A stretch of DNA of 35,119 bases from UHGV virus genome UHGV-0196339. One strand, 5' to 3'. A program made the position numbers and the translations under genes. The stretch comes from a virus. Shown one piece after another: positions 1 through 35,119 of the stretch (the stretch's first letter is position 1; the number at the start of each line of letters is the position of its first letter). The notes under the pieces were generated by a model. That model was given only the letters and a program-made list of their open reading frames with translations, did no database searches and was not told the origin of the DNA.

Positions 1-9
1 GTGGTTGAA

Positions 10-477
10 TTATTGTTTAATGGCGTTTTCTATCCATGTCGCCAAATTGTTCTTGATATCGCTATAAGCGTCGTTAAAGTTAGGTTCATATACGAGTGGT
101 TTAATTACTCGATCGCCTCGCTTAAATGTAAATTGGTCGAAAGGATTCGGTCCTTTTGTCCCATAGCCGTTACGAGGGCATTTCAGTCGATGAATATAAA
201 TACCCACCACAGCCTTACCCTCTTTCCAGGCTCTTTCGATCTCATACTTGACCCATGGGCGATTAGCCGTTTGACTCCCGATCAGTACTACTAAGCAGGA
301 TTTGCCATTTAAGCTCTGATTAATCCAATTCTTCACGCCCTGCTCAGTTCGTTTAATTTGTTCCCAAGTATTTGGGCTGACCGGTTCATCCCCCTCCAGC
401 ACTCCCATGTTACGAATCTGCTGTACCCGCATAACATCGTTATCAAAGTGAAAGCTGTAAAATACCTTACGTTTCAT
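10..477 (-). CDS. thsB: Thoeris ThsB, TIR-domain protein
   Basis: 155 aa. N-terminal RKVFYSFHFDND, LVVLIGSQTANRPWVKYEI and KGPNPFD blocks match the ThsB TIR family. ATG lies 2 nt after the thsA stop, with an AGGAGG SD inside the thsA 3' end. AT-rich. Confidence 0.88.
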   Translation of the reverse strand: MKRKVFYSFHFDNDVMRVQQIRNMGVLEGDEPVSPNTWEQIKRTEQGVKNWINQSLNGKSCLVVLIGSQTANRPWVKYEIERAWKEGKAVVGIYIHRLKCPRNGYGTKGPNPFDQFTFKRGDRVIKPLVYEPNFNDAYSDIKNNLATWIENAIKQ

Positions 478-479
478 AT

Positions 480-1946
480 CTAACCTCCTAGTTTCTTTAA
501 AATTTCTAAAACTTTCATTTCGATATTTGCCCGATTAGCAGAGAGATCTGCAAGCTGAGCAACTTCCTTTTCCAACCAAGGGTACCGGACAAAATGTTTA
601 CTTGGATCCGTCAGCATCTCGTCAGCTAGTTCCTTGGCCATATAACCAGTGACGCCAAGTGGAAGCACGACAACCCCTGTTTCCTGAGCAATTTGAAACT
701 CCCTTCGGACCCCATCAGCATTAACGATTCGACCATCATGGAGTTTATTCCCAAAAAGGAATATAGCGATTCCAGAAAGACCAATCATACGCTGCCGATA
801 TTCGTCCCATAGCTCGCTCAGGGCTTTATCGTTTGATGAGTGTTGAGGGAATGGCCGCATGATAAGTTGCTCTTCTGAGTACTTATCAGGCTTAGAATAA
901 ATGGCTTCAAGAGCTCCGTTGATGACCGCACTACCAATACCCCATCCAAACCCATTGACAACTCGATAGCCATTCTTCACCAAAGATGACGAAAGTATGT
1001 GTACAAAGTTTAGTGCTTCCTGTTTGTCCCAAGCGCCATACTCTTCTGCACTACCAGATATAAATATGGTCTTCTTGAGGAAGCGACTCTCAATCTCTTT
1101 CAATATAAGTGGAATATCATCGTACTCGTTTACTAATACAGCCTGAATGCCAAAACGGAGCAAATCGCGAATATGATGTTCTTGCCTACGCTGCCTATAC
1201 ATAGCGCCAGCTTCATCTTCATTTCCTTGCGGCAGAGAGGGTTCCTTACGAAGAAAGCAGTAGTGTCTACGACGATGCTTCTCCGGAACATGCAATCGGC
1301 TCAATATGTAATCAAGATTAGGATCAGTAAAACTGAAGCCAATAAATAAGAATGTCTTAGAAATCAAATCTCCACTCAATGCTGTAACAAACCCCTCATG
1401 GGTCTTGTAGTACTGCTCATACTGAGCTTTATAAAGTATGGCGTCACCTGGCGAGCTAACATCACCATGCATTTTGTAAACAACAGCATCTCGTTTAGGA
1501 CGAGTGGAAATAAGATCATCGGTTCTGCGTTTAATATCTGCGACACGGTAGTTTTCTTTGAGACTATCTTCAATCAAAGTGTCATAGTTGGTTGTCCAAT
1601 AAGTTCTAATGGGTAGTCTAGCAAGGATTTTATGGGCTTCGGAAGGTTCCGCTTGCTCCGAGAATTCCTCTAGGATTTTTCTAGCTAAACCAGTTGAGCT
1701 GTTGTTCTTGTTGACATGGTATTGTGCAACCGAAATTAAGTCGTGCTCTAGCTCAACAGAAAGGCCTAATTCTTCAGCAATTTCACGCAGCAGTTCACTC
1801 CAATTAACGAAGCCGCTGGTTCTAGATAGGCCCGCACCAGCAAAAACGGCGGCAACCCCTTCTTCGAGATCCTTCACATAAGTCCTGATAAAAGCTTCAA
1901 CTTCAGCCGAAAACTGAACACTCATATTTTTAGACAATCCGGTCAA
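480..1946 (-). CDS. thsA: Thoeris ThsA, SIR2 (NADase) + SLOG domain protein
   Basis: 488 aa. SIR2 motifs FAGAGLS, TTNYD, YKMHGD, FIGFSFTDPNLDYILSR. C-terminal SLOG-like region (FISGSAEEYG, GFGWGIGS). Operon partner of thsB. Confidence 0.9.
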   Translation of the reverse strand: MTGLSKNMSVQFSAEVEAFIRTYVKDLEEGVAAVFAGAGLSRTSGFVNWSELLREIAEELGLSVELEHDLISVAQYHVNKNNSSTGLARKILEEFSEQAEPSEAHKILARLPIRTYWTTNYDTLIEDSLKENYRVADIKRRTDDLISTRPKRDAVVYKMHGDVSSPGDAILYKAQYEQYYKTHEGFVTALSGDLISKTFLFIGFSFTDPNLDYILSRLHVPEKHRRRHYCFLRKEPSLPQGNEDEAGAMYRQRRQEHHIRDLLRFGIQAVLVNEYDDIPLILKEIESRFLKKTIFISGSAEEYGAWDKQEALNFVHILSSSLVKNGYRVVNGFGWGIGSAVINGALEAIYSKPDKYSEEQLIMRPFPQHSSNDKALSELWDEYRQRMIGLSGIAIFLFGNKLHDGRIVNADGVRREFQIAQETGVVVLPLGVTGYMAKELADEMLTDPSKHFVRYPWLEKEVAQLADLSANRANIEMKVLEILKKLGG

Positions 1947-2338
1947 AAGATAGACATAAACTTCTTACCACAAACTAACCTTTGTAGTTCTATACACCGC
2001 TTTTACGCTGTGCTTTAGTATCCAAATGGATTCATTACTACTGGGGTCAGTACCTATTGAGTAAGTAGGTAGAAAGCCATTACTAGCTCCAATACTCGCT
2101 AAGTATATGAGGCAATTAGGTGGTATTTTCAAGTTCACCGAGCCTGATACAGGGCCATAGGAATAAATAGTCACATTTTCGTAGCTCTTTTCCACTATTG
2201 GTAGTTAAATAATTACTTTCACTTTATCGCTCAAAGCGTACTCTCAGGTTTATTGCTTTTTAGTTACATAAACCGTCAGTTAGAGTTTGTACCTGTACAA
2301 CCTAGAATAACGGTAGCAACACGTTTGGGGAGGTCGCA

Positions 2339-2599
2339 ATGTTCCGTTGTCCACTTTGTGGTGCATCTGCCCGTATCCGCACCAGTCGTCCGGAAAATGA
2401 TTCAAACACTGTACGACAAAAGTATTACCAGTGTAATAACTTAGAATGCGGCGTATGCTTCTCAACACTGGAAGCTTTTCATAAGTTCACATCAAAACAC
2501 ACCTCCTGCGTTCACTCTTCAGGGGATATTCCGTGGCATGAGCTGCCAGCTTCACACAAGGGAAACAATCAGATGAGTTTGCCTTTACCTCAGAATTAA
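2339..2599 (+). CDS. ogr: Ogr/Delta-type zinc-finger late-gene transcription activator
   Basis: 86 aa, MFRCPLCG...ARIRTSR...YYQCNNLECG: C2C2 zinc-finger pattern as in P2 Ogr. GGAGG SD upstream. Confidence 0.9.
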   Translation: MFRCPLCGASARIRTSRPENDSNTVRQKYYQCNNLECGVCFSTLEAFHKFTSKHTSCVHSSGDIPWHELPASHKGNNQMSLPLPQN

Positions 2600-2687
2600 C
2601 AAGCAGAATTGCCGGAGTAGCAAAAAAGCGATAGATTACGCGCGGGTGCCTTTCGGCTGATGGTCGGAGGGAATACCCGAAGGCCAG

Positions 2688-2924
2688 ATGTGGAAAGGCC
2701 CCGGAAAAACATCTCTGTTTAACCGAGGCCCTAACCGCATTACCTTGACAAGTGAAAGGTTAGCGCCTCTCCGGAAAAGGAGCAAGTGCTATGTCGCAAA
2801 AATCGCTTACGGCCATCACGTTCTGCGTGACGGCAATCCTCATCATCTGGATGCTGCACGGTTCGCTGTGCGAAATACGGATGAGCTTCTGGGGAGCGGA
2901 GTTTGCGGCGTTCTTACAGTGTAA
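2688..2924 (+). CDS. mok-like overlapping reading frame (modulator of killing) of the hok locus
   Basis: 78-aa ORF starting upstream of hok and overlapping it in another frame, the arrangement known for hok/mok/sok loci. No independent sequence support. Confidence 0.3.
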   Translation: MWKGPGKTSLFNRGPNRITLTSERLAPLRKRSKCYVAKIAYGHHVLRDGNPHHLDAARFAVRNTDELLGSGVCGVLTV

Positions 2925-2931
2925 GCAGTAA
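2791..2931 (+). CDS. hok: Hok/Gef-family type I toxin (small membrane peptide)
   Basis: 46 aa, MSQKSLTAITFCVTAILIIWMLHGSLCEIRMSFWGAEFAAFLQCKQ: N-terminal TM helix, then SLCEIR and E-x-AAF motifs as in Hok/Gef. AAAAGGAG SD at 2775-2782. Too short for the ORF track. Confidence 0.7.
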   Translation: MSQKSLTAITFCVTAILIIWMLHGSLCEIRMSFWGAEFAAFLQCKQ

Positions 2932-3020
2932 GGAAACCGCGACGGGGGAGCAATCCCCCGTCAATCGGTTGCCAAGGTAAGGTCGATAAGGCACCCTATC
3001 TCATAGAGATGAATAACAAA

Positions 3021-3052
3021 CCCGCAGCGTAAAAACTGCGGGGTTTCTTTTT
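3021..3052 (+). terminator. Rho-independent terminator of the hok transcript
   Basis: Hairpin CCCGCAG-cgtaaaaa-CTGCGGG followed by TTTCTTTTT. Confidence 0.5.
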
Positions 3053-3120
3053 GGAACTCTCACTAGCTAGTGTACCGTTAGCGGCACATAATGCTCGCAC
3101 AACAAACCAGTTAAAAGAGA

Positions 3121-3516
3121 TTACTCAGCATTCTCCTGCTTCCATTGCCGGATCATTTCATCGGTAACATCACTCTCATAACATACCACGTCATACCCTC
3201 CAGTACGGCTATATGCACTGCGTCCACCACATCTACTACCATTCCTTGCATGATTATAAGGACACGCACAATTGCCTGGATAAGATTCAATGGATTCTTT
3301 AATTATTTCTTTCTTGATCTGAGCATCTGACTTTCCTTTTGCTGCATACCCACTAAAAGATACCAAACAAAGGCAGATTGCCATTAATAAACCACATCGC
3401 ATACCGATACGCCCTATTACTAACCAATCATAGCCCACATCATAAAATCGAGATGAGGAGTACAACACCTTTAACAAGAAGGTGCCATCACGATAATATG
3501 TCGTGCAATTCATCAA
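3121..3516 (-). CDS. Hypothetical Cys-rich secreted or membrane-anchored protein (att-proximal cargo)
   Basis: 131-aa ORF. Internal Met at 3402 is followed by a signal-peptide-like segment MRCGLLMAICLCLVSFSGYAA and a Cys-rich domain (GNCACPY...RCGG...VVCY). The true start may be 3402, which has a better SD. AT-rich. Confidence 0.5.
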   Translation of the reverse strand: MMNCTTYYRDGTFLLKVLYSSSRFYDVGYDWLVIGRIGMRCGLLMAICLCLVSFSGYAAKGKSDAQIKKEIIKESIESYPGNCACPYNHARNGSRCGGRSAYSRTGGYDVVCYESDVTDEMIRQWKQENAE

Positions 3517-3870
3517 AAAAAAGATCTATATCAAAGAGATAGAGTTATTATCAGTGCTGCAGACATCAGCATTCGAGGCAGCAGAAAAACAGTTAATCTA
3601 ACGAATTTGTATTTTCTCAGGATGTTGATTAAAAAAGATAGATTAGCGCAGACACCTTTTGGCGGGTGGTAGGAGGAAAAATGAAGTTGAGTGGGAAGAT
3701 CCCAGAAAAAATTTTGATTTAACCAAGGCCCTAGTTCAACATGCGAAATACAGATTAGTTGCAGGAGAGTTCTGCTTCACGCTTAGAGCTTCAACAGACG
3801 TGCACTATCATTGTTTCTGCATATCGCCACATCATCGCCACTTTACCGCCATTGCACAAAATACAAATAC

Positions 3871-3895
3871 AAAAAAACCACCCGAAGGTGGTTTC
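3871..3895 (-). terminator. Intrinsic terminator (minus strand) downstream of int and the att core
   Basis: Hairpin CCACC-ttcg-GGTGG followed by a 7-T run on the minus strand. Confidence 0.4.
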
Positions 3896-3937
3896 ACGAC
3901 ACTGCTTATTGCTTTGATTTTATTCTTATCTTTCCCA

Positions 3938-3992
3938 TGGTACCCGGAGCGGGACTTGAACCCGCACAGCGCGAACGCCGAGGGATTTTAAA
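3938..3992 (-). other. Phage attachment core: 3'-terminal ~55 nt of a tRNA-Leu(UAA) gene (anticodon loop to CCA), not a complete tRNA
   Basis: Minus-strand sequence TTTAAAATCCCTCGGCGTTCGCGCTGTGCGGGTTCAAGTCCCGCTCCGGGTACCA matches the 3' part of enterobacterial tRNA-Leu (leuZ-like, recalled from memory). The 5' half (D-arm, acceptor 5' strand) is absent. Confidence 0.7.
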
Positions 3993-4098: not shown

Positions 4099-5100
4099 TT
4101 ACCCTCTATTATCAAAAGGATTCAATTCAACAGCAGCCTCTAAATGACCTGGAGCAAAATGCGCATAACGCATAGTCATTTTTATATCGCTATGCCCCAG
4201 TATTTTTTGCAACACAAGAATATTTCCGCCCCGCATCATAAAATGACTGGCAAACGTGTGACGTAGCACATGAGTTAATTGCCCATCAGGAAGCTCGATC
4301 TTCGCTCTCTTAATTGCAGCGTCAAAAGCCTCATAACATGGTGAAAATAGCGCTCCTCGTTTTTTAGGAAGCATAGCCTGCAATTGAGGTGAAATAGGTA
4401 CAGTGCGGTTCTTCTTTCCTTTAGTTTTAACAAATGTGATTCGACCGGGCAGTACTTGAGATTGCTTTAATCCTTCTGCTTCACTCCACCGAGCACCAGT
4501 CGCAAGCCCAATACGGACAACAACCCCCAAATCTTTATTCCGTGACTCATCACACGAAATCAGAAGGCGTTCAATCTCATCTACATACAGAAACGCCAGT
4601 TCCTTTTCTTCCTCACGAAACTTGCGAATACCAGTCAGAGGGTTTTCACCAGACCACTCCCCAAGGCGCTTCAGTTCGGCAAAAACAGCATGTAGATATG
4701 ACTGCTCGCGATTAACGGTTGCTTCACTAAGTTTTTTCTTCCCCTTGGGATTCCATTCTCCTGATAGCCTTCTTTCCCGATAAGTAGCAAACATATTTTT
4801 GTCAAACTGAGAAGCAAATGGATCTCCCAGCCTAGAACAAATCGCCTCAAGTTTGACTTTGCGCTCTGCACCAGAGGACAAGGTTTTACCGTACATCTCA
4901 AACCAACGAGCAATCAACTCAGAAAGACGAGGACCAGAACCATCTTGAAACTCGTCTCCAACTCTACTATTCATTAAACGGCGCTCATAAGAGAGCGCCT
5001 CACTTTTTGTCGCAAACTGTTTACGAATGCGTTTTCCCGATGCCCCGTAGGGATAACATTCGCAAAGCCATTTACCTGATGGAATCTTACGAACCGACAT
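4099..5100 (-). CDS. int: Tyrosine recombinase / phage integrase
   Basis: 333 aa. C-terminal catalytic region with HVLRHTFAS, GHSDIKMTMRYAH (R-H-R-Y family). Adjacent to the tRNA-derived att core. Confidence 0.95.
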   Translation of the reverse strand: MSVRKIPSGKWLCECYPYGASGKRIRKQFATKSEALSYERRLMNSRVGDEFQDGSGPRLSELIARWFEMYGKTLSSGAERKVKLEAICSRLGDPFASQFDKNMFATYRERRLSGEWNPKGKKKLSEATVNREQSYLHAVFAELKRLGEWSGENPLTGIRKFREEEKELAFLYVDEIERLLISCDESRNKDLGVVVRIGLATGARWSEAEGLKQSQVLPGRITFVKTKGKKNRTVPISPQLQAMLPKKRGALFSPCYEAFDAAIKRAKIELPDGQLTHVLRHTFASHFMMRGGNILVLQKILGHSDIKMTMRYAHFAPGHLEAAVELNPFDNRG

Positions 5101-5105: not shown

Positions 5106-5453
5106 TTACTTATCACATAAATCAAATGCAGCCTTAGTGACATCCCCCAGATTCTTTTTTAACCCTGGGGCGGCATCATTATCTAGCCAAAATGGATTAT
5201 TGTTATCTAACGGTAACGCACCAAATGTTTTACCTTTTATTCGAGCCAAACCTGTAAGCGCATATAACTTATTATCGTCAAAATTCATCACATAAGGATT
5301 ACCATCAAGACACTGTAATTGAACCTCATCAGTATTAAATGGCCATACCCCATTGAAACTCTCACGTTCAATAGTTTTAAAAGGCATTGCGACGGCAGAA
5401 AAAGAAAACATAAATAAAAAAGTAACTAATAGTTGAATCTTTTTTACTTTCAT
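5106..5453 (-). CDS. Hypothetical secreted (signal-peptide) protein, lysogeny-operon cargo
   Basis: 115 aa. N-terminal MKVKKIQLLVTFLFMFSFSAVA signal peptide, two Cys in the mature part. GAGGT SD. 5-nt gap to int, AT-rich. Confidence 0.6.
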   Translation of the reverse strand: MKVKKIQLLVTFLFMFSFSAVAMPFKTIERESFNGVWPFNTDEVQLQCLDGNPYVMNFDDNKLYALTGLARIKGKTFGALPLDNNNPFWLDNDAAPGLKKNLGDVTKAAFDLCDK

Positions 5454-5482: not shown

Positions 5483-6133
5483 TTACAAATTAAAAAACAT
5501 CCTAGAAATGGCACCGCCTACCAAAACCCCTACGCAGATAAAGAATATTATTTCTTTTGGATAAAGTCGGATTAATTCTGAAGCACGAAGTCGGACTTCT
5601 GGTAAGGTCGAATTCTCTGTGTTGCTTGATACCGATTGTTGCTCTAACCACGACAATGCAGACTGTAACTGAGAACGAGTAAGATCGTTTAAACGTCCTG
5701 TACCGAAATTGATATGGCAATACCGCAGAAGTTTTTGTCGAAGTCCACAGTCTTCACTGTTACGTAGTAATAAACTTACAAGAGTCTTACAGGCATCATG
5801 ATCTTTACATCGCTCAAGCATTGCATGCAGAAAACTCTCCGCTGTTTTATATTGATTTACTGTCATATCATCAATACCAGCTACACCAATCTCCGCATGT
5901 ACTTTTTGCCAAATAATAAACGCTTCAGTATTGCTAGCTTCTGCAATAGCAGCAACCAAGCTATTTAGCTCCTTACGCTGAGCCTTAAGCAAAGGGCGAT
6001 CGTCATCATCATTATTCGAAGGGATTGCGATATTGACGATATGAGAACCATCATATCGATCTATCTGAATATTCTTTTCGTGAAAATCACGCCCAGCAAC
6101 GCGATTGTTTGAACCGTTTGAGTTGACGGCCAT
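5483..6133 (-). CDS. Hypothetical tail-anchored membrane protein, lysogeny-operon cargo
   Basis: 216 aa. C-terminal hydrophobic helix IIFFICVGVLVGGAISRMFF. N-terminus SNNRVAGRDFHE repeats the repressor C-terminal motif. GGGAGG SD, 15-nt gap to the repressor stop. Confidence 0.6.
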   Translation of the reverse strand: MAVNSNGSNNRVAGRDFHEKNIQIDRYDGSHIVNIAIPSNNDDDDRPLLKAQRKELNSLVAAIAEASNTEAFIIWQKVHAEIGVAGIDDMTVNQYKTAESFLHAMLERCKDHDACKTLVSLLLRNSEDCGLRQKLLRYCHINFGTGRLNDLTRSQLQSALSWLEQQSVSSNTENSTLPEVRLRASELIRLYPKEIIFFICVGVLVGGAISRMFFNL

Positions 6134-6148: not shown

Positions 6149-6553
6149 TCACCTACCCTTAGTTTCGTTATAGTCACGACCAGCGATACGGTTATTACCA
6201 CCAGAAATATTTAACTCACGTCCTGATGGCTGAGTTTCCTTTTCACTGACCGCACCTTTTAAAGCCCCGATCACCGCGTTTTTCACATCTAACGAAGCTG
6301 CTCGAAAGCGAGTAATCAACTCCTGCTCATCATCGTTATAAGTTTCAGGTGAGTGAATTCCCAACACAACATACTGAACATCAAGGCCAAAACGAGACAG
6401 CGCTGCCAAATACGCAGCATCAGGAAAGCTATCTCCTTTCTCATATCTAAGCTGAGTTAGCTTTTTGACTCCACCAATGTCGCTCATAGCAACTTGACTA
6501 AGCCCCAATCTTTCCCTTTCCTCACGCAACCGCTGACCAATATCATTTTTCAT
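6149..6553 (-). CDS. XRE-family HTH repressor (cI-like immunity repressor)
   Basis: 134 aa. N-terminal HTH (LGLSQVAMSDIGGVKKLTQLRYEKG). Divergent from the early operon. First gene of the repressor-cargo-int operon. Confidence 0.75.
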   Translation of the reverse strand: MKNDIGQRLREERERLGLSQVAMSDIGGVKKLTQLRYEKGDSFPDAAYLAALSRFGLDVQYVVLGIHSPETYNDDEQELITRFRAASLDVKNAVIGALKGAVSEKETQPSGRELNISGGNNRIAGRDYNETKGR

Positions 6554-8640: not shown

Positions 8641-11406
8641 ATGACGGCAGAGTACATCAGGGACTGGCAACAACCGCGCCACGCAGTGGGGCGTGAAGGA
8701 ACGGGGATCCCCGCTCCTGAATCCGCGCTTTCCTCCTGGCTGGATGCCTACCGGGCAGAGAACGAGCGCCGCCAGGAAATGGCTGATGCGGCGTTCTCCG
8801 CCACGCCGCTGGGCAACCTGATTAATAAAAGCCTGGACGCACAGGAAAAACAGGACAAAACCATCACACTGGCAGGAGACGCCAGAAAACAGGCACGTGG
8901 CGCGGTGGATGAAGCCATGGCCTCGCTGCGCCTGCTGCCGACCTATCTGCGCGATCCGCTTATTCGCCACCTCTCCTTCCTGCGCAAAAAACAGGAAGCC
9001 GATCGTCAGAAAGGAAAAAACGCCAGGCAGGCAGAACGCTATGCGCGTGGGACCCTGCGCAAAATATTCGAACGTCTGGAGCGCACCGATCACCGCTGGC
9101 TGACACCGGGTTATCGCTCCCTTGCCGGACGCGAACGCCTGGACAATTTGCTTTACCTGCCGCAGCTCAACAAACACCAGATACAGACGCTGGCCACCAT
9201 GACGGCGGCGATGTTCAGCAGCACCTTCGAAAAACTCTGCGATGGCTTTGGCGCGACCGATGGCGAGCTGACCATGGATGTAACCCTGAAGGCGTATCAG
9301 ATGCTGGCCCGCATAGCGTTACACCTGCACGCCATGCCTCCACATTATGACGCACTGACAACAGACAAAGACCGGAGGAACGAACCGGACACGGAGCTGC
9401 TGCCGGGCGCAATCCTTCGCCTGACCTGTGCGGAATGGTGGAAACGCAAACTGTGGCTGTTACGTTGCGAGTGGCGGGAAGAACAACTCCGCGCCGCCTG
9501 TCTGGTTTCCAGAAAGACATCACCCTATCTGAGCCAGGACGCGTTAAGCGAGTTTCGCGCACAGCGCGAGAAAACACGCGATTTCCTGAAAAGTTTCATG
9601 CTGGAAAACGAAGACGGGTTCACGATTGATCTCGAGACAGTGTATTACGCGGGAGTAAGTAACCCGGTTCACCGTAAGGCAGAAATGATGGCCACCATGA
9701 AGGGGCTGGAACTTCTGGCCGAAGCCCGTGGCGACAGAGCGGTGTTTCTGACTGTCACCTGCCCGTCAAAATACCACGCAACAACGGAGAACGGTCATCC
9801 GAATCCCAAATGGAACGGGGCCACTATGCGCGACTCCAGCGATTACCTGGTTAACACGTTTTTTGCAGCGGTCCGCAAAAAACTGAACCGCGACGGCCTG
9901 CGCTGGTATGGCATCCGCACGGTGGAGCCTCATCATGACGGCACGGTGCACTGGCACATGATGGTTTTTGCTCATCCTGACGAGATTGAAACCATCGTGT
10001 CCCACGTCTGCGATATTGCCATTCAGGAAGACCGCCACGAGCTGGGCGATGACATAACTCCGCGTTTTAAGGCGGAGTACGTCGACGGCTCAAAAGGCAC
10101 ACCAACCAGCTATATCGCGACCTACATCGGAAAAAACCTGGACAGCCGCGCCGTGGATGGCATCGACCCGAAAACGGGCAAACCACGCGTTGACCACGAA
10201 ACCGGAAAATCAATGGCCGAGAGCGTGGAGCGCGCCATCGGCTGGGCGCGCCTTCACCGGGTCCGCCAGTTCCAGTTCTTTGGCATCCCCTCCCGTCAGG
10301 TGTGGCGTGAACTGCGCCGCCTTGCCAGCCAGATGGCACGCAACCCGGAAGGCCCGCAACGGCTGAAGGATGACGCAATGGATGCGGTACTCGCTGCCGC
10401 TGATGCCGGGTGTTTTGCCTCCTACATTGAAAAACAGGGTGGCGTACTTGTTCCACGCAAGGACTACCTGATTCGCACCGCCTACGACCTCGCAGATGAG
10501 CTGAACGATTACGGCGAACAGAGCGTACAGATTTACGGGATCTGGTCACCACTCATCGGGGAATCCTCCCGTGTGTGCACGCACCCGGATAACTGGAAGC
10601 TGGTAAGACGTAAACCGGAAGCGGAAGACAGCACCCGCGAAAATGATTTTGACCTTCAGGGCGGCCCTGCCGCCCCTTGGACTCGTGGCAATAACTGTCC
10701 CCGTGTACAGGAAACGGACAACAACGGGACAGAACAGCAGGAAGAACGGCCAGCACTGTGGCCGCAGCTTCCTGACGGCGTTGATGTGGATGAATGGATG
10801 CGCTCACTGAAACGGCACGAACGCCGGGCGCTGATGCGTTCGCTTCGTGACAAACAGGCAAAAAACAGCAGTGATGAAATGCAGAGCTGGACACAGAGCC
10901 GCAAACAGCAGCGGCCTTTGCCTGATAACCACGAATTACTCGCTAAAGAATGGCGGGAATCTGCCGAATCTCTCGGCCTGCATATCGGTGAACAGCAGAT
11001 GCAGCACCTGTTACGAGGCGGCAGTCTGTACGTTGACGGCAGCATCATTGCACCGCAGGGATTTGAAATTGTACGCAAACCAGATACCCGACCGGACAGC
11101 CGAATCACGCAGCTCTGGCAGCGCCTGAGCCGTAATCACGGCGTAAACAGCACGGAAATCCGCCATAACCCGGTTTCCAGCTATCTGAAACAGCTCGGGG
11201 CATCAGACCCTGAAGCCGCTGCACGCCTGGCATCCACAATTCAGCAGGACCAGAGCACCATGAAAACTCCCGTTACCGTGCTTTCTGACATGCTGCGCGC
11301 CATCCGTGACGCAGAGCACGCACAGAGAATCAATGAAACCACTGAACGCGCACGTCACAAGGCGGGTCTGTTGCAGGACAAAGGCAATAGCGAGAAGAAA
11401 AAATAA
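8641..11406 (+). CDS. A: Gene A-type rolling-circle replication initiation endonuclease
   Basis: 921 aa. TVTCPSKYH, VEPHHDGTVHWHMMVF (HUH motif) and YIATYIGKN (catalytic Tyr motif) match P2 gpA. Long low-complexity C-terminal extension. Confidence 0.9.
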   Translation: MTAEYIRDWQQPRHAVGREGTGIPAPESALSSWLDAYRAENERRQEMADAAFSATPLGNLINKSLDAQEKQDKTITLAGDARKQARGAVDEAMASLRLLPTYLRDPLIRHLSFLRKKQEADRQKGKNARQAERYARGTLRKIFERLERTDHRWLTPGYRSLAGRERLDNLLYLPQLNKHQIQTLATMTAAMFSSTFEKLCDGFGATDGELTMDVTLKAYQMLARIALHLHAMPPHYDALTTDKDRRNEPDTELLPGAILRLTCAEWWKRKLWLLRCEWREEQLRAACLVSRKTSPYLSQDALSEFRAQREKTRDFLKSFMLENEDGFTIDLETVYYAGVSNPVHRKAEMMATMKGLELLAEARGDRAVFLTVTCPSKYHATTENGHPNPKWNGATMRDSSDYLVNTFFAAVRKKLNRDGLRWYGIRTVEPHHDGTVHWHMMVFAHPDEIETIVSHVCDIAIQEDRHELGDDITPRFKAEYVDGSKGTPTSYIATYIGKNLDSRAVDGIDPKTGKPRVDHETGKSMAESVERAIGWARLHRVRQFQFFGIPSRQVWRELRRLASQMARNPEGPQRLKDDAMDAVLAAADAGCFASYIEKQGGVLVPRKDYLIRTAYDLADELNDYGEQSVQIYGIWSPLIGESSRVCTHPDNWKLVRRKPEAEDSTRENDFDLQGGPAAPWTRGNNCPRVQETDNNGTEQQEERPALWPQLPDGVDVDEWMRSLKRHERRALMRSLRDKQAKNSSDEMQSWTQSRKQQRPLPDNHELLAKEWRESAESLGLHIGEQQMQHLLRGGSLYVDGSIIAPQGFEIVRKPDTRPDSRITQLWQRLSRNHGVNSTEIRHNPVSSYLKQLGASDPEAAARLASTIQQDQSTMKTPVTVLSDMLRAIRDAEHAQRINETTERARHKAGLLQDKGNSEKKK

Positions 11407-11586: not shown

Positions 11587-12708
11587 ATGGGCGACTTAGG
11601 TGGTATTCAGTCAGATTTAGCCCAACTAGTTAGACTGGTAATAACTGAACAGTATGATGACGTTCGGTTATATGTCGCTCGCTTGGTGCGTAAATATCGG
11701 GAAACTATGCCTGCTCTATCCGAGCAGCTTGATCTTTATCTACGAAATAAACCGCAAAAGCCTGCACAAAGCCTGCGTAAGGTTACCGCACCAAAACAAG
11801 CGCTGCCTCAAACCATGCCTGTGGACGAGGAGTCAAGGCTTACCTTGCTTAAAGCACCAAATGAAAAGATTGTGAGCAAACCTCTACTGTCCAGTCAGAT
11901 AGAAGACTCACTGGATCAAATTATTCTTGAGCGGAAGCACATCGATCGCCTCAAGACTCTCGGCTTACAACCAACACGCTCTGCCATTTTTGTTGGCCCT
12001 CCGGGTGTAGGTAAAACACTTACGGCAAGCTGGTTAGCTCAGAAATTAGGGGTTCCTTTTTACGTTCTTGATTTAACGGCAGTAATGAGCAGCTATCTGG
12101 GCAAAAGCGGAAATAACCTTCGGGCAGCTCTAGATTTTGCGAAGAAAGGGCCGTGCGTTCTTCTGTTAGATGAAATTGATTCAATCGCCAAAAAGAGAAG
12201 TGATGATTCTGATGTTGGAGAATTAAAAAGACTTGTTACAGTGATACTCCAGGAGGTTGACGAATGGCCGTCTTCTAGTTTGCTACTTGCTGCAACTAAC
12301 TTCGCTGAGTTGATTGATCCAGCACTATGGAGACGTTTTGATTTAGTGCTCAATTTTGAGAAACCAGATAGCGAAAGTATTAAAGAAGCAATTAAACGCT
12401 TTTCAGGTCCCGACTACGCGATTTTTGCACGTTGGATAGATCTACTGGCTATTATGTTCAAAAATGAATCTTTTAGTAATATTGAGCGTTCTATCAACAA
12501 ATTCCGACGTTCGGTCGCTTTAGGTATTTCCTCAGATGAAGAGTTGATTGGGTCGTTCATTAAAGATGGTTTATCAGAATTAGACAGGAATGAACGTAAA
12601 GAAATTGCAGTTACTCTAAAAAGAAATTCTAAATTATCCCAGCATGCCATATCAGACTTAACCGGAGTCAGTAGGGATACAATTAGAAAATACAGTCAAA
12701 AAATGTAA
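11587..12708 (+). CDS. AAA+ ATPase with C-terminal HTH-like segment (IetA-like)
   Basis: 373 aa. Walker A GPPGVGKT, Walker B LLLDEID, sensor-1 ATN, Arg finger region WRRFD. C-terminal LSQHAISDLTGVSRDTIRKY resembles an HTH. AT-rich. Confidence 0.8.
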   Translation: MGDLGGIQSDLAQLVRLVITEQYDDVRLYVARLVRKYRETMPALSEQLDLYLRNKPQKPAQSLRKVTAPKQALPQTMPVDEESRLTLLKAPNEKIVSKPLLSSQIEDSLDQIILERKHIDRLKTLGLQPTRSAIFVGPPGVGKTLTASWLAQKLGVPFYVLDLTAVMSSYLGKSGNNLRAALDFAKKGPCVLLLDEIDSIAKKRSDDSDVGELKRLVTVILQEVDEWPSSSLLLAATNFAELIDPALWRRFDLVLNFEKPDSESIKEAIKRFSGPDYAIFARWIDLLAIMFKNESFSNIERSINKFRRSVALGISSDEELIGSFIKDGLSELDRNERKEIAVTLKRNSKLSQHAISDLTGVSRDTIRKYSQKM

Positions 12709-12731: not shown

Positions 12732-14957
12732 ATGGCGAAAACTAATTTTCTGATTGGACGCGGCGAATTATTAACCAGCGATATTCCTGGTCCTAAAAGA
12801 GTGCCCGGAAAAGCTGAGGTTTATTCTCTTTACGAATCGAAACAACGTTTATTGCCGCAAATTGCATCTACTATAGAAAATTTTGATGATTTACCCAGTC
12901 AGGCATGTCCTTATGATTATGCTGTGGCTAAGTTGACGTTGAATCCGAGCTATATTGCACGCTCTTTTTTTCCTGCAAAAATGCTTAAGTCTACCGGGTT
13001 AACGTCTATTGGCAGCAGGACGGTAAAAATTACGCCTCAAAGCTGGAAGCGAAAAGTTACTGTGTCAGAAGTAACTACGACACAAATGTTTGTTGCTGGT
13101 AAAAGAGAATCCTTCAAAGAGTTACCTCATTGGGTGTCAGGACTCAAAGAGTTTTCTGACGAAGCGATTGATTTTGCACGCATAGAACGGTTCGATGCCT
13201 ATTTACCCGAAGAGCGTATTATTACCATTGGTGAGCAGGATTCTTCGTATTTTGAGGTTGGTGTTCATTTACTGCCAGATAATGAACAAGACTTGGTTCA
13301 GCAACAATTTGTTCAGTTTGCATCAAATTTGAACATCAAAGTACATACTTCATTAGCTTTTACCGCTGGTACATTATGGTTCGTGCCAATCCAGGCCGAT
13401 AGAATTACTATTAGTAAGCTTGCGAAATTTACATTTGTACGAGTAATAAGACCGGTTCCAAGATTGCGTGGGATTAGACCAATACAAAGGAACTACGGTC
13501 CTTTAGCTCAGTGTAAATTGCCTGCTGAGGGCCCCGTATCTTCAGAAATAAAAGTTGCGATTCTTGATGGCGGTTTACCATCAGAGCACGCTATATCGCC
13601 ATGGTTAAAATCCTATAGAGTTTTGGACGATCATGCAGAGGATGATCCAGACGGTTTAGAACATGGTTTAGCTGTGTCTTCAGCCTTTTTATTTGGACCA
13701 ATAAGTAATAAATCGGAAGCGAAAAGACCATACTCTTATATTGATAACTTAAGAGTTTTGGACAACAAGACCTGCCAAGAAGATCCGCTGGAACTATATC
13801 GAAATTTGGGCTTTATTGAAGAGGTATTGTTGTCTCGCCAGTATCAGTTTATCAATCTAAGTTTAGGTCCAGACCTACCAATTGAAGATACGGAAGTTCA
13901 TGCATGGACTTCCGTTATTGATGATTTGTTAAGTGATGGTGAAACATTAATGACTGTTGCTGTTGGCAACAATGGAGAAATGGATCGCAAGTCTGGTAAT
14001 GCAAGAATTCAAGTACCAGCCGATTGCGTTAATGCTCTTGCTGTTGGTGCTTGTGATACAGTTAATGATACGGAATGGAAACGAGCACCATATAGCGCCA
14101 TTGGGCCAGGCAGAAGTCCTGGCGTGATGAAACCGGATTTAGTTGCGTTTGGTGGTGACACAGACGAGTACTTTCATGTTTTAGGTAAAGGTAAGAAGCC
14201 TGTAATCATACCCCAGCTAGGAACAAGCTTTGCCTCTCCTTACGCCTTACGAGCAGCTGTTGGTGTTCGGGCAATTTTAGGGAACGATTTGAGCCTACTA
14301 GCAATCAAAGCTTTGTTAATTCATGCGTCAAAACAGCTTGATCATCCTTGTACAGAAGTTGGCTGGGGAAAACTTCCTGAAGACTTGAACGACATTATAG
14401 TCAGCCCTGATGGTGTTGCCCGTATCGTCTACCAAGGTGAATTGAAACCAGGAAAATACTTACGCGCTCCTCTTCCAATACCTGAAGGTGGCTTGAAAGG
14501 TAGAATAAACTTAGCGGCAACTTTCTGTTATGCAACAACCACTGATCCACAAGACCCAGCTTCCTATACAAAAGCTGGTTTGGAAGTGACATTCCGGCCA
14601 AATGATTCAAAAATCAAAGACGGAAAACAAAATGCTGAAACCAAGGGATTCTTTGAACTGGCCAAATATTCAACTGAAAGTGAGCGACGTTCTGACATGG
14701 GCAAATGGGAGACCGTCTTACATAATTCGAAGAACATGCTCGGTTCAACTCTAAAAAATCCTGTATTTGACATTCATTATAACGCTCGTGAGGCCGGTGC
14801 AAGCATAGCCAGCCATAAGGCAGAAAAAATCAAGTATGCTCTTATAATTACCATTAAGGCATCAAAGCACCAAGACCTGTATAACGAAATTTTACGTACT
14901 TATAATCAGGTGCTCGTGCCAATTCAACCGCAAACATCAATTCCTATTCGTTCGTAA
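12732..14957 (+). CDS. S8-family subtilisin-like serine peptidase with N- and C-terminal extensions (IetS-like)
   Basis: 741 aa. Subtilase motifs: Asp in VAILDGG, His in LEHGLAV, oxyanion Asn in VGNNG, Ser in GTSFASP. AAGGAG SD 5 nt upstream, 23 nt after the ATPase stop. Confidence 0.85.
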   Translation: MAKTNFLIGRGELLTSDIPGPKRVPGKAEVYSLYESKQRLLPQIASTIENFDDLPSQACPYDYAVAKLTLNPSYIARSFFPAKMLKSTGLTSIGSRTVKITPQSWKRKVTVSEVTTTQMFVAGKRESFKELPHWVSGLKEFSDEAIDFARIERFDAYLPEERIITIGEQDSSYFEVGVHLLPDNEQDLVQQQFVQFASNLNIKVHTSLAFTAGTLWFVPIQADRITISKLAKFTFVRVIRPVPRLRGIRPIQRNYGPLAQCKLPAEGPVSSEIKVAILDGGLPSEHAISPWLKSYRVLDDHAEDDPDGLEHGLAVSSAFLFGPISNKSEAKRPYSYIDNLRVLDNKTCQEDPLELYRNLGFIEEVLLSRQYQFINLSLGPDLPIEDTEVHAWTSVIDDLLSDGETLMTVAVGNNGEMDRKSGNARIQVPADCVNALAVGACDTVNDTEWKRAPYSAIGPGRSPGVMKPDLVAFGGDTDEYFHVLGKGKKPVIIPQLGTSFASPYALRAAVGVRAILGNDLSLLAIKALLIHASKQLDHPCTEVGWGKLPEDLNDIIVSPDGVARIVYQGELKPGKYLRAPLPIPEGGLKGRINLAATFCYATTTDPQDPASYTKAGLEVTFRPNDSKIKDGKQNAETKGFFELAKYSTESERRSDMGKWETVLHNSKNMLGSTLKNPVFDIHYNAREAGASIASHKAEKIKYALIITIKASKHQDLYNEILRTYNQVLVPIQPQTSIPIRS

Positions 14958-15450: not shown

Positions 15451-16497
15451 TCAGGATGTGGGCTGGGTGTCTAACAGTGCGTAAGGGTTAAAGCGGATCA
15501 CCTCTTCGCCAAGCCAGTCATTGATGTGCTTCATGGCCTCCATGACGGGCATCAGCTCGTTAATTGCGTAAACCCGTGCGGCCTTCTCCACATCACCAAA
15601 CGCACTTTTTTCGCCCGGCATCGCCCCCATCAGTTGCGGCGGAACGCGGTGCGCAGCCAGCACATCATCACGGGATGCCGCCTTAACATTCATGAACTCA
15701 TCCTTTGCGGTGATCTGCTGGAACGGCAAAATTTGCACCCCCTCTTTGCCCCCGTTGGGCGCATGGATGAGCACGTTTTTAAACGCACCACCTCCACGTG
15801 CCCCCTGTAACGTTTCTTTCAGGGAGTCCATGCTTTCGCGGTTTACCTGCGCTGCTCCGATGTAGATGATGCACCCGGCGTGGGATCCATTGTCGTAATA
15901 CAGTTTTCTGAACATGTCCGCCGAATGAGACAGGCTGGCCGAGAGTAATGCGCCAAGATATTCCGGCATGCCGTAAATTTCCTGGTTAATGTCCGGATTC
16001 ATCAGGTGGCACACTTTGCCAGGGCGAAACTGAAACGCGTCTTTGCCATCCTGCACATACCACCATGATTCAAGATCGCTTCCGCGTCGCATGTATTTCG
16101 CCAGTGCGTGCCGTAATTTAAGTGGTTCGCCGAGCATATTGCTTCGAAGCTCAAGGAATGCGTTACCGAACACAAACCAGTCCAGCGCCAGCGCCGAGAA
16201 ATCCTGCCGGGAAAGCAGCGGGTGCGGGATGTAGCAACCAAGTAATACATTGCGCTTAAAGTAAAGCGCAGACTGATGCCAGGACGTTTGCCGGGCAGCT
16301 CTTGCCAGACCGTACCAGTCCACCGGGGTTTCATACCACCGCCCGTTATCAGCACAGTACATATTGTCCAGCAGGTCATGCCCGGTCAGGCGATAAGGAC
16401 CATCAAATGTGAATGCACTGAGCGATGATTCTTTCCTGAGCGCATCAGCGAGATCAATGCGTGAACTCATGCGCACTTTTTTATTTTTTCTGCTCAT
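15451..16497 (-). CDS. Q: Portal protein (P2 gpQ-like)
   Basis: 348 aa, downstream of and ATGA-overlapping the terminase gene on the minus strand. Position and size as P2 Q. Possible alternative start at 16470. Confidence 0.85.
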   Translation of the reverse strand: MSRKNKKVRMSSRIDLADALRKESSLSAFTFDGPYRLTGHDLLDNMYCADNGRWYETPVDWYGLARAARQTSWHQSALYFKRNVLLGCYIPHPLLSRQDFSALALDWFVFGNAFLELRSNMLGEPLKLRHALAKYMRRGSDLESWWYVQDGKDAFQFRPGKVCHLMNPDINQEIYGMPEYLGALLSASLSHSADMFRKLYYDNGSHAGCIIYIGAAQVNRESMDSLKETLQGARGGGAFKNVLIHAPNGGKEGVQILPFQQITAKDEFMNVKAASRDDVLAAHRVPPQLMGAMPGEKSAFGDVEKAARVYAINELMPVMEAMKHINDWLGEEVIRFNPYALLDTQPTS

Positions 16498-27701: not shown

Positions 27702-28139
27702 ATGAAATATACATACAGCCCGTCAGCCGGCGCATTTTTCCCAAATGAATTCAAAGAAAGCTATAAAGCGGCAGGAAGCTGGCCAACTGATGGTATTGAG
27801 GTGACAAAGGAAATTCGGGATAAGTTTTTAGCCCAGCCACCTGAAGGTAAGTGTCTCGGTGCAGACCAGAACGGGCACCCTGCATGGATTGACATACCCG
27901 AGCCAGATAAGGAAGAACAACAGGCCGAATTCATCAATGAACGAAACCTGCGAATATTGTTTGCTAATGACTATATTGCCAGTAAGCAATGGCCCGCCAG
28001 AGCTGTTCTTGGTCGGTTAAAGGGTAACGAATTATCTGATTACAATAAGTGGCTGGATCACCTTGAAGAACTTGAATCAATAACCCTCGACACTGTTCGT
28101 AATAATCACTGGCCGCAACCCCCTCTACCTTCGACATAA
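27702..28139 (+). CDS. G: Tail fibre assembly protein G
   Basis: 145 aa, immediately downstream of H. N-terminal MKYTYSPSAGAFFP... typical of Tfa proteins. Confidence 0.75.
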   Translation: MKYTYSPSAGAFFPNEFKESYKAAGSWPTDGIEVTKEIRDKFLAQPPEGKCLGADQNGHPAWIDIPEPDKEEQQAEFINERNLRILFANDYIASKQWPARAVLGRLKGNELSDYNKWLDHLEELESITLDTVRNNHWPQPPLPST

Positions 28140-28173: not shown

Positions 28174-28665
28174 TCAGACACGAGAAAAAACATTTCCCAC
28201 TGTTTCATATGCTGAGCTTGCTGTTTTCTGGAAATCACCCAGAAGATCTCCGAAGGAGGATGACTGCAGGCGCTCCCGCAAATCCTCATCACAGCGTTCA
28301 AGGGTCAGTGAAAACTCTATCTTTTTCGCCTTACCGTAGCGATCAAACTCGGAACGGGTCGTATTCGTTTCGGTCAGGACATACATGCCGTAAATCTGCC
28401 CGACGCCATCAATCAAAGGCCAGGGACGTCCTGTATACGCCTGCGTGGTCAGCAGCGACAGCGACACTTCGCCACCTGTAATTTCAGGATAAAGCACACC
28501 AGAAAGCACAATGCGATCATCGCCTGCCCCGATATACTGCCAGCTTGCTGAACGGTTAACGCGTTCATTTTTCACATGTCGCCAGCTTTTATTTTGCTGT
28601 AACTGCTGATGCGGCAATGTGCGCAGCTCAAAAACAAACATGCCGTAGATCATCATCATGTCCAT
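28174..28665 (-). CDS. U: Tail protein U
   Basis: 163 aa. MMMIYGMFVFELRTLPHQQLQQNKSWRH resembles the P2 U N-terminus. Last gene of the minus-strand tail operon. Confidence 0.8.
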   Translation of the reverse strand: MDMMMIYGMFVFELRTLPHQQLQQNKSWRHVKNERVNRSASWQYIGAGDDRIVLSGVLYPEITGGEVSLSLLTTQAYTGRPWPLIDGVGQIYGMYVLTETNTTRSEFDRYGKAKKIEFSLTLERCDEDLRERLQSSSFGDLLGDFQKTASSAYETVGNVFSRV

Positions 28666-33756: not shown

Positions 33757-33913
33757 AGCTTCAGCCCCTTGTATCCGTTAAATGATTCGGCAACAATCAT
33801 CACCCACCACGCGCGTAATCTCACCCCTGCGCCGTTCTCCCGCCACGGCGACAACAAAAAGCAGTAACCCCCTCCGCACGCACATGCGACCATGCCGCAC
33901 AGGGAGGGAGCAG
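33757..33913. promoter_or_regulatory. Divergent late promoter region between FI (minus) and D (plus)
   Basis: 157-nt intergenic region between divergent starts. Shares CCCTTGTATC, ACAACAAAA and AACCCCCT with the P-O region. Confidence 0.4.
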
Positions 33914-35023
33914 ATGACCGACACCACCATGCAATTGCTCAGTCAGGGCACGGACCCCGTGAAAATGCCGGATTTTGATATTCTCACGGAGGGGAAAACG
34001 CTGCCCAGCGTGGCAGAGCGCCTGATGAACCTGTCACTGACCGACAACCGGGGATTTGAAGCAGACCAGCTCACCATCACGCTGGATGATGCAGATGGTC
34101 AGTTGCAGCTACCGCCACGGGGCGCGCGCCTGACGGTTCTCATTGGCTGGAAAGGAGAACCGCTGACAGAAAAAGGTACTTATATTGTTGATGAAATCGC
34201 TCATGAAGGACCGCCGGACAGGCTGACTGTTTCAGCCAGAAGCGCAGATTTCCGGGATGAATTTAACGTTAAACGTGAGGTGTCCTGGCATGATGTGACC
34301 GTTGAGCGTGTGGTATCCGCCATCGCTCACCGGTACGGCCTGAAACCGCAAATCAGCGAAATGCTGATGGATATCGAAATCGACCACGCTGACCAGACTG
34401 AAGAAAGCGACATGTCCTTCCTTACGCGCATGGCGGAAATGCTGGGCGCAATCACCACAGTAAAAAGCGGTAATCTGTTATTCATCATGCCAGGCGGTGG
34501 CGTGAACGCACAGGGCCAGCCGTTGCCATCGTTCGCCATCACTCGCAGTAGTGGCGATCGCCATCAGTTCCGCATTGCTGACCGCGAAGCGTATACGGGA
34601 GTACGCGCTTACTGGCTTGATCTTAATTACGGGAAAAAGAAAAAAGTCAGCGTGAAACGCCGCAAACCGAAAAAAGAGAAAAGCAGCAGCCGTGAAGGTG
34701 ACTATATGGAAGGTTCGGAAGGCAACGTGTTTGTGTTACGCAAAACTTATCAGAACGAACAGGCAGCAAGACGCGCAGCGGCGGCAAAGTGGCAGCAGCT
34801 ACAACGCAGAGCCGCATCATTCTCCATCACACTGGCACGTGGACGCGCAGAACTCTACCCCGAAATGCATGGCACGGTGACAGGCTTCAAAAGTGACATC
34901 GACAATCAGGACTGGATTATTGCAAAAGCCGAGCACACCATTGATAACAGCGGCTTTACCACGCAGCTTGAGCTTGAGGCAAAAATCCCAGAGTGGATAG
35001 CAGAAACAGAGCGAGCAACATAG
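33914..35023 (+). CDS. D: Tail protein D (late control gene D family)
   Basis: ATG at 33914 preceded by AGGGAGGGAG. About 369 aa with the gpD-family layout. The ORF track extends the frame upstream to 33782. Confidence 0.85.
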   Translation: MTDTTMQLLSQGTDPVKMPDFDILTEGKTLPSVAERLMNLSLTDNRGFEADQLTITLDDADGQLQLPPRGARLTVLIGWKGEPLTEKGTYIVDEIAHEGPPDRLTVSARSADFRDEFNVKREVSWHDVTVERVVSAIAHRYGLKPQISEMLMDIEIDHADQTEESDMSFLTRMAEMLGAITTVKSGNLLFIMPGGGVNAQGQPLPSFAITRSSGDRHQFRIADREAYTGVRAYWLDLNYGKKKKVSVKRRKPKKEKSSSREGDYMEGSEGNVFVLRKTYQNEQAARRAAAAKWQQLQRRAASFSITLARGRAELYPEMHGTVTGFKSDIDNQDWIIAKAEHTIDNSGFTTQLELEAKIPEWIAETERAT

Positions 35024-35119
35024 ATACATTAGTTCATGCATAAGCTGGCCAGCTTACTACAAAAAGCTAGAATAAATTTGGCAATCCGCACAAATTAACA
35101 GGAGGCAGCTCAGGCCTCC

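Follow-up and report, generated by a model that had tools for sequence, protein, structure and literature searches.

Here we describe UHGV virus genome UHGV-0196339, a 35,119-nucleotide (nt) stretch of viral DNA (the window, meaning the whole stretch, with positions counted from its first letter), which we read, with a probability of roughly 90%, as a temperate P2-like (Xuanwuvirus/P88-like) Escherichia coli phage carrying a complete type I Thoeris system as accessory cargo in a recurrent slot between the tail gene D and the late-gene activator ogr. The two Thoeris genes, thsA and thsB, are intact and translationally coupled, retain their functional residues and lie within a temperate phage. 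They are located as follows:

10..477, minus strand: thsB, 155 amino acids (aa), TIR-domain sensor and signal synthase, with its stop codon at 10-12.
480..1925, minus strand: thsA, 481 aa, effector with SIR2 (NADase) and SLOG/STALD domains; the mechanical open reading frame (ORF) reaches a TTG at 1946.

Assignment of the pair to Thoeris draws on domain models, structures and individual residues. ThsB matches the Pfam family ThsB_TIR (1e-23) and the PADLOC model ThsB1 (3e-70), and ThsA matches Pfam SIR2_2 over residues 115-241 (1.8e-28), Pfam STALD, the SIR2- and TIR-associated SLOG domain, over residues 277-485 (9.3e-78), and the PADLOC model ThsA1 over its full length (6.4e-203). Both proteins are 100% identical to PDB entries along their whole length, ThsA (481 residues) to 8WC0 ("NAD(+) hydrolase ThsA") and ThsB (155 residues) to 8WCF ("Molecular chaperone Tir"), so that this Thoeris is a known system; a 2025 paper (PMC12700824) uses the name E. 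coli ThsA for 8WC0. Homology extends to the Bacillus cereus proteins (ThsA against 6LHX, E=5.6e-138; ThsB against 6LHY, E=6e-21). Residues N113 (in WTTNYDT) and H153 (in YKMHGDV) of ThsA align with N112 and H152 of 6LHX, the catalytic Asn and His of the SIR2 domain, and R377, K394 and E409 align with R371, K388 and E403 of the B. cereus protein, which in published structures form the SLOG pocket that binds the cyclic ADP-ribose (cADPR) isomer. Similarly, E79 of ThsB (in VKYEIER) aligns with E85 of B. cereus ThsB, the catalytic Glu of the TIR domain. Domain content, aligned residues and the adjacent operon are, judged from sequence, all those of a type I Thoeris system. It is extremely improbable that the locus is some other SIR2/TIR system (DSR-type, SIR2-HerA, prokaryotic Argonaute (pAgo)-associated SIR2, TIR-STING/CBASS or type II Thoeris): the SIR2 domain does draw weak secondary PADLOC matches (LmuA of Lamassu, Dsr1/2, pAgo-associated SIR2, PDC-S25), but these other families score 3e-18 at best against the full-length ThsA1 match, the SLOG/STALD domain is present in ThsA, no Macro/TM domain, HerA, Argonaute or cyclase gene lies near thsAB, and ThsA is identical to the PDB protein of that name.

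The layout of the two genes is that of a compact operon. The likely start of thsA is the ATG at 1925, which is the RefSeq choice and the point at which PDB 8WC0 begins after a 4-residue N-terminal extension. Both genes are on the same strand with a gap of 2 nt, and the AGGAGG Shine-Dalgarno sequence of thsB sits within the 3' end of thsA. The GC content of the whole insert is 42.3%, compared with 54.6% for the late-gene region. An initial annotation, made from the letters alone, had proposed a type I Thoeris with strong family motifs (a SIR2-SLOG ThsA and a TIR ThsB), arranged as a tight operon in AT-rich DNA on the strand opposite D and ogr, with the window beginning 9 nt past the thsB stop, and had suggested a search with hidden Markov models for SIR2, SLOG and TIR. 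That search recovers all three domains (SIR2_2, STALD and ThsB_TIR), Pfam, PADLOC and the PDB agree on the family, and the 2-nt gap, the strands (both Thoeris genes minus, D and ogr plus), the base composition and the stop codon at 10-12 are as the annotation had them.

Because thsB stands at the start of the window and D at its end, the placement of the module depends on how the two ends join. The features concerned are:

33782..35023, plus strand: D, tail/baseplate hub gene and left flank of the cargo (Pfam Phage_GPD, 3.2e-18; start at 33914 in other annotations).
2339..2599, plus strand: ogr, zinc-finger activator of the late genes, flanking the cargo on its right (Pfam Ogr_Delta, 5.1e-14).
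3869-3992, no strand assigned: attP region, 124 nt present on both the attL and the attR side of the E. coli H3 prophage, including the 3' end of tRNA-Leu.

The D product matches P2 gpD at about 48-58% identity (tblastn, tblastx) and is annotated in sister prophages as late control D / VgrG family; after its stop codon 96 nt are left to the window end. On the other side, DNA identity of ~92% to P88-like phages starts at 2295-2299 and runs through ogr. The phage as a whole is P2-like and belongs to the P88/Xuanwuvirus type, whose FI-U tail block has the opposite orientation to that of P2, with D and FI transcribed divergently. The join of the window ends is present in the closed E. coli H3 chromosome (NZ_CP010167.1), where the final 120 nt of the window pass directly into its first 20 nt with 140/140 positions identical; genes are annotated there in the order sheath, D, TIR protein, SIR2 protein, ogr, hok, tRNA-Leu/Cys/Gly, pgsA-uvrC. 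Within the assembly collection, 634 blocks list an identical ThsA; nine of the ten identical-ThsA contexts shown have D-thsB-thsA-ogr-hok at the same chromosomal site, and the tenth (L016) is the same locus in a decayed prophage, with gene D replaced by an insertion sequence (IS). The D-thsB-thsA-ogr order is also found on two IMG/VR contigs. Furthermore, the H3 prophage corresponds on its attR side to window 2601-3992 and on its attL/int side to window 3869-6000, and the 124-nt overlap of the two at 3869-3992 identifies the window as an excised, circularly permuted phage genome. Given the prophage order D-thsBA-ogr-hok-attR and an attP at 3869-3992, thsAB are inside the phage borders and, lying between D and attP, would be expected to travel with the phage. 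ARAGORN finds no complete tRNA in the window.

The initial annotation had assumed that the window ends are contiguous, had placed thsAB between two genes that are adjacent in P2, and had advised confirming the D-thsB join in the source assembly. The closed H3 chromosome confirms the join, nine assemblies and two IMG/VR contigs agree, and D and ogr are indeed adjacent in P2 (81-nt gap) and in P88-like relatives. An artefact, by which thsAB of the chromosome or of another element came to stand next to D through circularisation or misassembly, could be suspected from the D and thsB ends lying at opposite ends of the window sequence, but it is refuted by the junction in H3, in nine further assemblies and on the two IMG/VR contigs, and by ogr, hok and attR beyond thsA, which put the module within the prophage borders; we give it practically no chance.

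The interval into which thsAB are inserted is a site at which cargo recurs. P2 itself has 81 nt between D and ogr, a gap that contains the annotated ogr promoter, and in five phages (P88, Shae_phiSM, P884B11, PhiR44_2 and Chuche) the interval is empty, at about 40 nt. It contains a 340-aa HEPN-like protein in phage 500465-2 and a 132-aa unknown protein in phage 520873, and D and ogr are kept at 92-95% identity across related phages. When an 804-nt probe across the empty P88 junction was compared with 5426 complete E. coli genomes, 1241 matched, 728 of them with a contiguous (empty) junction; up to about 40% of matching genomes therefore have a split junction, a figure that sets a ceiling on occupancy, since decayed prophages contribute to it. 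An evenly spaced sample of hits to a probe of D, cargo and ogr comprised 24 empty and 18 occupied sites, the latter with about 10 cargo types:

Thoeris (this window's module and sampled sites)
SEC-C/YecA-like protein
ComF-type phosphoribosyltransferase (PRTase) with a 185-aa partner
GmrSD-like nuclease
500-aa PIN protein
DUF3800 protein
DUF2971 protein (PADLOC candidate PDC-S31)
465-aa unknown protein
340-aa HEPN-like protein
IS elements

The comparison of the D-ogr interval across P2-like phages, which had also been proposed at the outset, thus reveals a recurrent slot with the profile of a defence hotspot, in that its flanks are conserved, its content is variable and it is empty in some relatives and filled in others, in large part with defence-like cargo. 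The uncharacterised cargo (the PIN, DUF3800, 465-aa, 340-aa HEPN-like and SEC-C/YecA-like proteins and the PRTase pair) are reasonable candidates for new defence genes.

How far the Thoeris module is a working part of this phage was weighed against its expression signals and its record in E. coli genomes. Two non-coding features frame the operon:

1926..2225, minus strand: thsA leader, non-coding, an AT-rich stretch (~37% GC) upstream of thsA.
35101..35119, no strand assigned: candidate thsAB terminator, a hairpin GGAGGC-N7-GCCTCC read from the sequence.

The leader presumably holds the thsA promoter. A 76-aa ORF there (1965..2195, minus strand) has no match in Pfam or PADLOC, and RefSeq has no gene call at that place. 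The GC-rich hairpin reaches the window's last base, with the thsB stop codon 9 nt farther on across the junction, and may terminate the thsAB transcript; a terminator scan gave no convincing result for thsA, this hairpin having lain outside its view.

Several observations count against an intact, active Thoeris cargo. A promoter scan upstream of thsA returned weak sigma-70-like matches and no convincing sigma-70 promoter, and the literature searched yielded no publication attached to 8WC0/8WCF. The full intact 2.7-kb Thoeris segment is present in 5 of the 5426 complete E. coli genomes, and about 63 match only window 1-1057, which corresponds to thsB and the SLOG half of thsA. In those remnants thsB is intact and thsA is cut by an ISEc52/IS3-family element carrying a group II intron; with so many complete genomes holding a decayed locus, Thoeris appears dispensable and often lost. 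An effector-domain swap as the source of the matches confined to 1-1057 was ruled out, thsA being interrupted by the IS3/ISEc52 element and its intron. The remnant in E. coli DA33133 has IS1 in place of gene D and adjoins a type I restriction system.

From the IS-disrupted remnants, the rarity of the intact segment and the lack of a clear thsA promoter, one could argue that Thoeris is decaying here, silent or inactive, and stays in the phage as a hitch-hiker through linkage only. This we consider quite improbable: both window ORFs have their full length and encode exactly (100% identity) the proteins that have been expressed and crystallised, every functional residue checked is conserved, and the identical ThsA recurs across the 634 blocks noted above. 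We therefore retain the reading of thsAB as a complete defence system carried by the phage. Its mode of action would follow that of the characterised homologues from B. cereus, B. amyloliquefaciens and S. equi. In the lysogen, thsAB would be expressed from their own promoter on the strand opposite the late genes, and upon sensing a superinfecting phage, ThsB would turn NAD+ into a cADPR isomer (3'cADPR / 1''-3' gcADPR). Binding of this isomer to the SLOG domain would lead ThsA to form active oligomers or filaments, whose SIR2 domain would destroy NAD+. By analogy, the infected cell would then no longer support phage growth (abortive infection), with the lysogen population, and hence the prophage, protected.

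A further, unexpected finding concerns the edges of the cargo, which are bracketed by inverted repeats (IR) and by a short direct repeat:

35022..35089, plus strand: IR-L, left inverted repeat, a copy of a ~95-nt family (nhmmer E=1.5e-4 with a profile lacking this copy; 5.6e-5 in another profile search).
2226..2300, minus strand: IR-R, right inverted repeat, an inverted and more diverged copy (nhmmer E=4.7e-4 with a profile lacking this copy).
35016..35024, no strand assigned: direct repeat, left copy, 9 nt, CAACATAGA, overlapping the D stop codon (from the sequence and junction alignments).
2298-2306 (feature 2298..2308), plus strand: direct repeat, right copy, CAACCTAGA, overlapping the ogr -10 hexamer TAGAAT (2303-2308).

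In an alignment of the junctions of ten different occupied sites, two linkers are conserved, a left one of ~95 nt after the D stop codon and a right one before the ogr -10 hexamer, and both are missing from empty sites. IR-R can be aligned to the right linkers of two other cassettes, YecA (score 1.8e-10) and ComF (1.8e-4). The consensus left linker compared with the reverse complement of the right linker gives a local score of 17, against a null of 8.3 +/- 1.4, with none of 2000 shuffles scoring as high. BLAST of a left linker leads to AJ512677, AJ512680 and AJ512685, the Z-regions of P2-EC31, P2-EC46 and P2-EC67, where the match falls on features annotated as "left inverted repeat"; the same records also annotate a "right inverted repeat", and the homology of the D-ogr linker to the Z-region repeat is strong, scoring 32 against 8.5 +/- 1.5. 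Furthermore, when the profile is built from left copies only, it recovers right copies, in inverted orientation, from the YecA cassette (E=1.8e-10), P2-EC31 (4e-7), P2 (6e-6, between fun(Z) and FI) and the ComF cassette (2e-4). The repeat pairs are much stronger in sister cassettes than in the Thoeris window, and a stringent within-locus inverted-repeat test is marginal for single loci (z up to 3.4), a clear signal being obtained only by consensus and profile methods. A profile excluding the Thoeris copies finds no further copies in the window.

The direct repeat flanks the whole D-ogr unit; its consensus at other occupied sites is CAACTTAGA, with one copy only (GAACTTAGA) at the empty P88 site. 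The right edge of the cargo overlaps the control region of ogr. A candidate ogr -35 element, TTAGAG (2280-2285), lies in IR-R on the plus strand, 17 nt upstream of the conserved TAGAAT, and reads TTGGAG in most cassettes; in P2 an ogr promoter is annotated at the equivalent position. By restoring a -35 element, IR-R may thus allow an insertion that leaves the essential ogr gene expressed. With regard to the identity of the repeats, a transposon whose target-site duplication produced the 9-nt repeat was not adopted, as copies on a Yersinia plasmid are without flanking direct repeats. Membership of the ERIC/IRU family was rejected on a best local score of 8-9 against a 44-nt form of the ERIC core and on the low copy number of the repeat (about 1 per E. 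coli genome), and a structured RNA on an RNAalifold consensus of -0.23 kcal/mol and the lack of an Rfam match.

The wider distribution of the ~95-nt family links the D-ogr interval to other sites of variable content. In E. coli the repeat is present in 771 of 5426 genomes, with a median of one copy and a maximum of two. A survey of 80 IMG/VR loci containing the repeat core motif found convergent copies flanking a payload at the Z site, adjacent to FI, in 46, and probably in 6 more, with payload sizes of 0.8-5.8 kb; four of the 80 are D-ogr sites of Xuanwuvirus-like phages, and one has a pair in the A-Q hotspot of a distant P2-like phage (L101). Copies are also present on enterobacterial plasmids, and on the Yersinia pseudotuberculosis plasmid p_153kb convergent pairs surround single genes, with no direct repeats seen to flank them. 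A solo copy was observed in a lambdoid prophage of E. coli ST131. In a limited sample (tblastx, megablast), the same cargo was not found at both Z and D-ogr, or on plasmids. The products entered in the Z-region records of 2004 as 'putative lysogenic conversion proteins' (L034 321-1409; L035 294-1295 and 1819-2925) can today be recognised as those of defence genes, namely Shedu SduA (9e-163), a Lit-like U49 peptidase (5.5e-11) and a nuclease-effector-like protein. Since the D-ogr and classical Z/fun slots have their bracketing repeats in common, their cargo may have been acquired by the same route. The initial annotation had regarded the site as distinct from the tin/old and Z/fun hotspots, which is correct by position; mechanistically the sites appear not to be separate, the same inverted-repeat family bracketing the Z/fun cargo.

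These observations raise the question of whether D-ogr cargo is the payload of a dedicated mobile gene cassette, in which the ~95-nt inverted repeats serve as sites of some recombinase or transposase and single defence genes or operons are moved, integron-like, among the Z/fun, D-ogr and A-Q hotspots, other (lambdoid) prophages and plasmids. The agreement of left linker and reverse-complemented right linker, unmatched in 2000 shuffles, speaks for this, as do the inverted right copies recovered by the left-only profile from YecA, P2-EC31 and P2, the recovery of both Thoeris window copies at about 1e-4, and the annotation of repeats of the same family in AJ512677, AJ512680 and AJ512685 as left and right inverted repeats of the Z-region. 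The 46-52 convergent Z-site pairs, four D-ogr sites and one A-Q pair in IMG/VR, the pairs around single genes on p_153kb, and the direct repeat CAACTTAGA around the D-ogr unit, single-copy in empty sites, point in the same direction. A site-specific mechanism was reportedly proposed for the Z-region in the 2004 study of Nilsson et al. On the other side, no recombinase linked to the repeats was found, the Yersinia plasmid copies have no flanking direct repeats, and identical cargo was not seen at two kinds of site in the limited sample, 10/10 identical-ThsA contexts being one locus. The repeat is of low copy in E. coli, neither a conserved RNA fold nor an Rfam family was found, and its copies share about 70-80% identity, a divergence that old passive flanks would be expected to show.

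With neither a recombinase nor, in the limited sample, an identical cassette at two kinds of site found, an active cassette mechanism is a minority hypothesis, which we hold to be doubtful. The alternative is that the repeats are passive, old flanks acting as homology arms, and homologous recombination in conserved flanks accounts for the data equally well. Acquisition of the Thoeris cargo would then proceed by exchange through recombination in or at these flanks, namely the D end with IR-L on one side and IR-R with the ogr promoter on the other. If the cassette hypothesis were true, the repeat profile would offer a sequence handle for mining defence genes independent of flanking core genes, and the new part of the hypothesis would be the extension of a site-specific mechanism beyond the Z-region to other slots and plasmids.

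Returning to thsAB as phage cargo, related modules reveal something of their origin. The closest non-identical relative (84% identity for ThsA, 88% for ThsB) is on a lambdoid phage contig (L025 5001-7862; IMG/VR_UViG_3300045115_000105), between DnaC-like and RusA genes. DNA homology to this contig runs from 25 nt upstream of the thsA ATG to the thsB stop codon, so that only the two ORFs and the ribosome-binding site are common to both. The same contig has a 290-aa ORF after its Thoeris genes with a faint TIR_2 match, possibly a second ThsB. In addition, a 56%-identical ThsA with a 203-aa ThsB adjoins the portal gene of another P2-like phage (L029 1-2010), which is the classical A-Q slot. With relatives in a lambdoid phage and in the A-Q slot, Thoeris modules appear to circulate among phage hotspots, which is consistent with the "shuttling" picture of a 2026 study in Nucleic Acids Research (NAR; PMC13586616).

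The phage carries a second defence system in addition to Thoeris. An IetA (1e-77) and IetS (1.2e-51) pair at 11587..12708 and 12732..14957 (plus strand), in AT-rich DNA, fills the classical hotspot between gpA (8641..11406) and gpQ (15451..16497); a profile search detected no inverted repeats at this A-Q slot of the window. Its Z/fun-equivalent slot is empty, with a 34-nt gap (28140-28173) from the tail-fibre assembly gene (27702..28139) to U (28174..28665); in the near-identical E. coli H3 prophage this slot holds a serine acetyltransferase (L001 333-905), where repeat copies were not detected. Between the integrase (4099..5100) and a helix-turn-helix repressor-like gene (6149..6553) lies an AT-rich (35-41% GC) pair on the minus strand, a DUF2511 gene (5106..5453) and a gene for a 216-aa protein without family match (5483..6133), which may be further cargo in the int-proximal slot listed by the 2026 NAR paper (PMC13586616). 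Directly after ogr is a hok/gef-family toxin gene (2791..2931, plus strand), and sister loci have a sok-antitoxin-like RNA under the Rfam threshold (48 bits against a cut-off of 59). Between hok and attP, a 131-aa ORF (3121..3516, minus strand; 93 aa in the RefSeq version) has a signal-peptide/lipoprotein-like N-terminus and no match in Pfam or PADLOC. The early region includes two RNAs above the Rfam gathering threshold, the Hfq-binding RNA isrK (7712-7786, plus strand, 61.9 bits) and a C4 antisense RNA (7822-7909, plus strand, 77.6 bits).

Previous descriptions of P2-like variable regions cover neighbouring or other sites. The gpA-gpQ hotspot was described by Rousset et al. 2022 (PMC9122126), a 2010 paper cites three classical variable regions (TO-region, Z-region and orf30; PMC3091744), and the 2026 NAR study lists gpA-gpQ, int-att, int-primase and tail-gene hotspots, with ogr and gpD unmentioned (PMC13586616). 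The variable region of a preprint probably spans the present stretch (D ... ogr, att, int, repressor); D-ogr is not singled out as a slot in its text, where ogr and Thoeris have 0 occurrences each, and the repeats are unmentioned in the passages available. As this literature lists neighbouring or other hotspots only, the D-ogr slot is at most loosely described, and of a well-known kind. A paper describing the E. coli ThsA/TIR locus of 8WC0 and 8WCF as cargo of a P2-like phage was not found in the literature searched.

Defence cargo in P2-like prophages is expected, and the Thoeris system is mechanistically nothing new because its proteins are the crystallised E. coli ThsA and ThsB. What our analysis contributes is the placement of a structurally characterised ThsA/ThsB pair as cargo of an inducible-looking P2-like phage which, with IetAS also aboard, delivers two defence systems on lysogenisation. 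The added value lies in the D-ogr hotspot of P88-like phages, a well-populated slot whose cargo in the sampled sites is mostly uncharacterised and single-gene, and in the inverted repeats that it has in common with Z/fun.

Compared with known systems, the window locus resembles the type I Thoeris of B. cereus MSX-D12 (ThsA 6LHX, 8BTO; ThsB 6LHY, 9B7D) in its two-gene architecture and its SIR2-SLOG and TIR domains, the two ThsA proteins aligning over residues 8-452 (E=5.6e-138) with functional residues kept. It differs in having a shorter ThsB (155 aa versus about 190), which diverges beyond residue 120, in its single thsB gene, and in its Gram-negative host and P2-like prophage carrier, the B. 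cereus locus being in a chromosomal defence island. Relative to the E. coli ThsA and TIR proteins of 8WC0 and 8WCF there is zero difference at the protein level, and the window adds the genomic context that a PDB file does not hold. The P2 Z/fun cassette (AJ512677, AJ512680 and AJ512685) is alike in that its cargo is bracketed by convergent ~95-nt repeats and is defence-like too (Shedu SduA, Lit-like peptidase, nuclease effector). However, Z/fun cargo in P2 lies between the tail-fibre genes and FI, and the Thoeris cargo between D and ogr, where, unlike in the Z/fun cassette, the right repeat doubles as the ogr -35 region and the repeat copies are more diverged. Finally, the tin/old slot of P2 (gpA-gpQ, PMC9122126) is, like D-ogr, a variable slot of P2-like prophages with diverse anti-phage systems; it is a different slot, and in the other P2-like phage described above it holds Thoeris itself.

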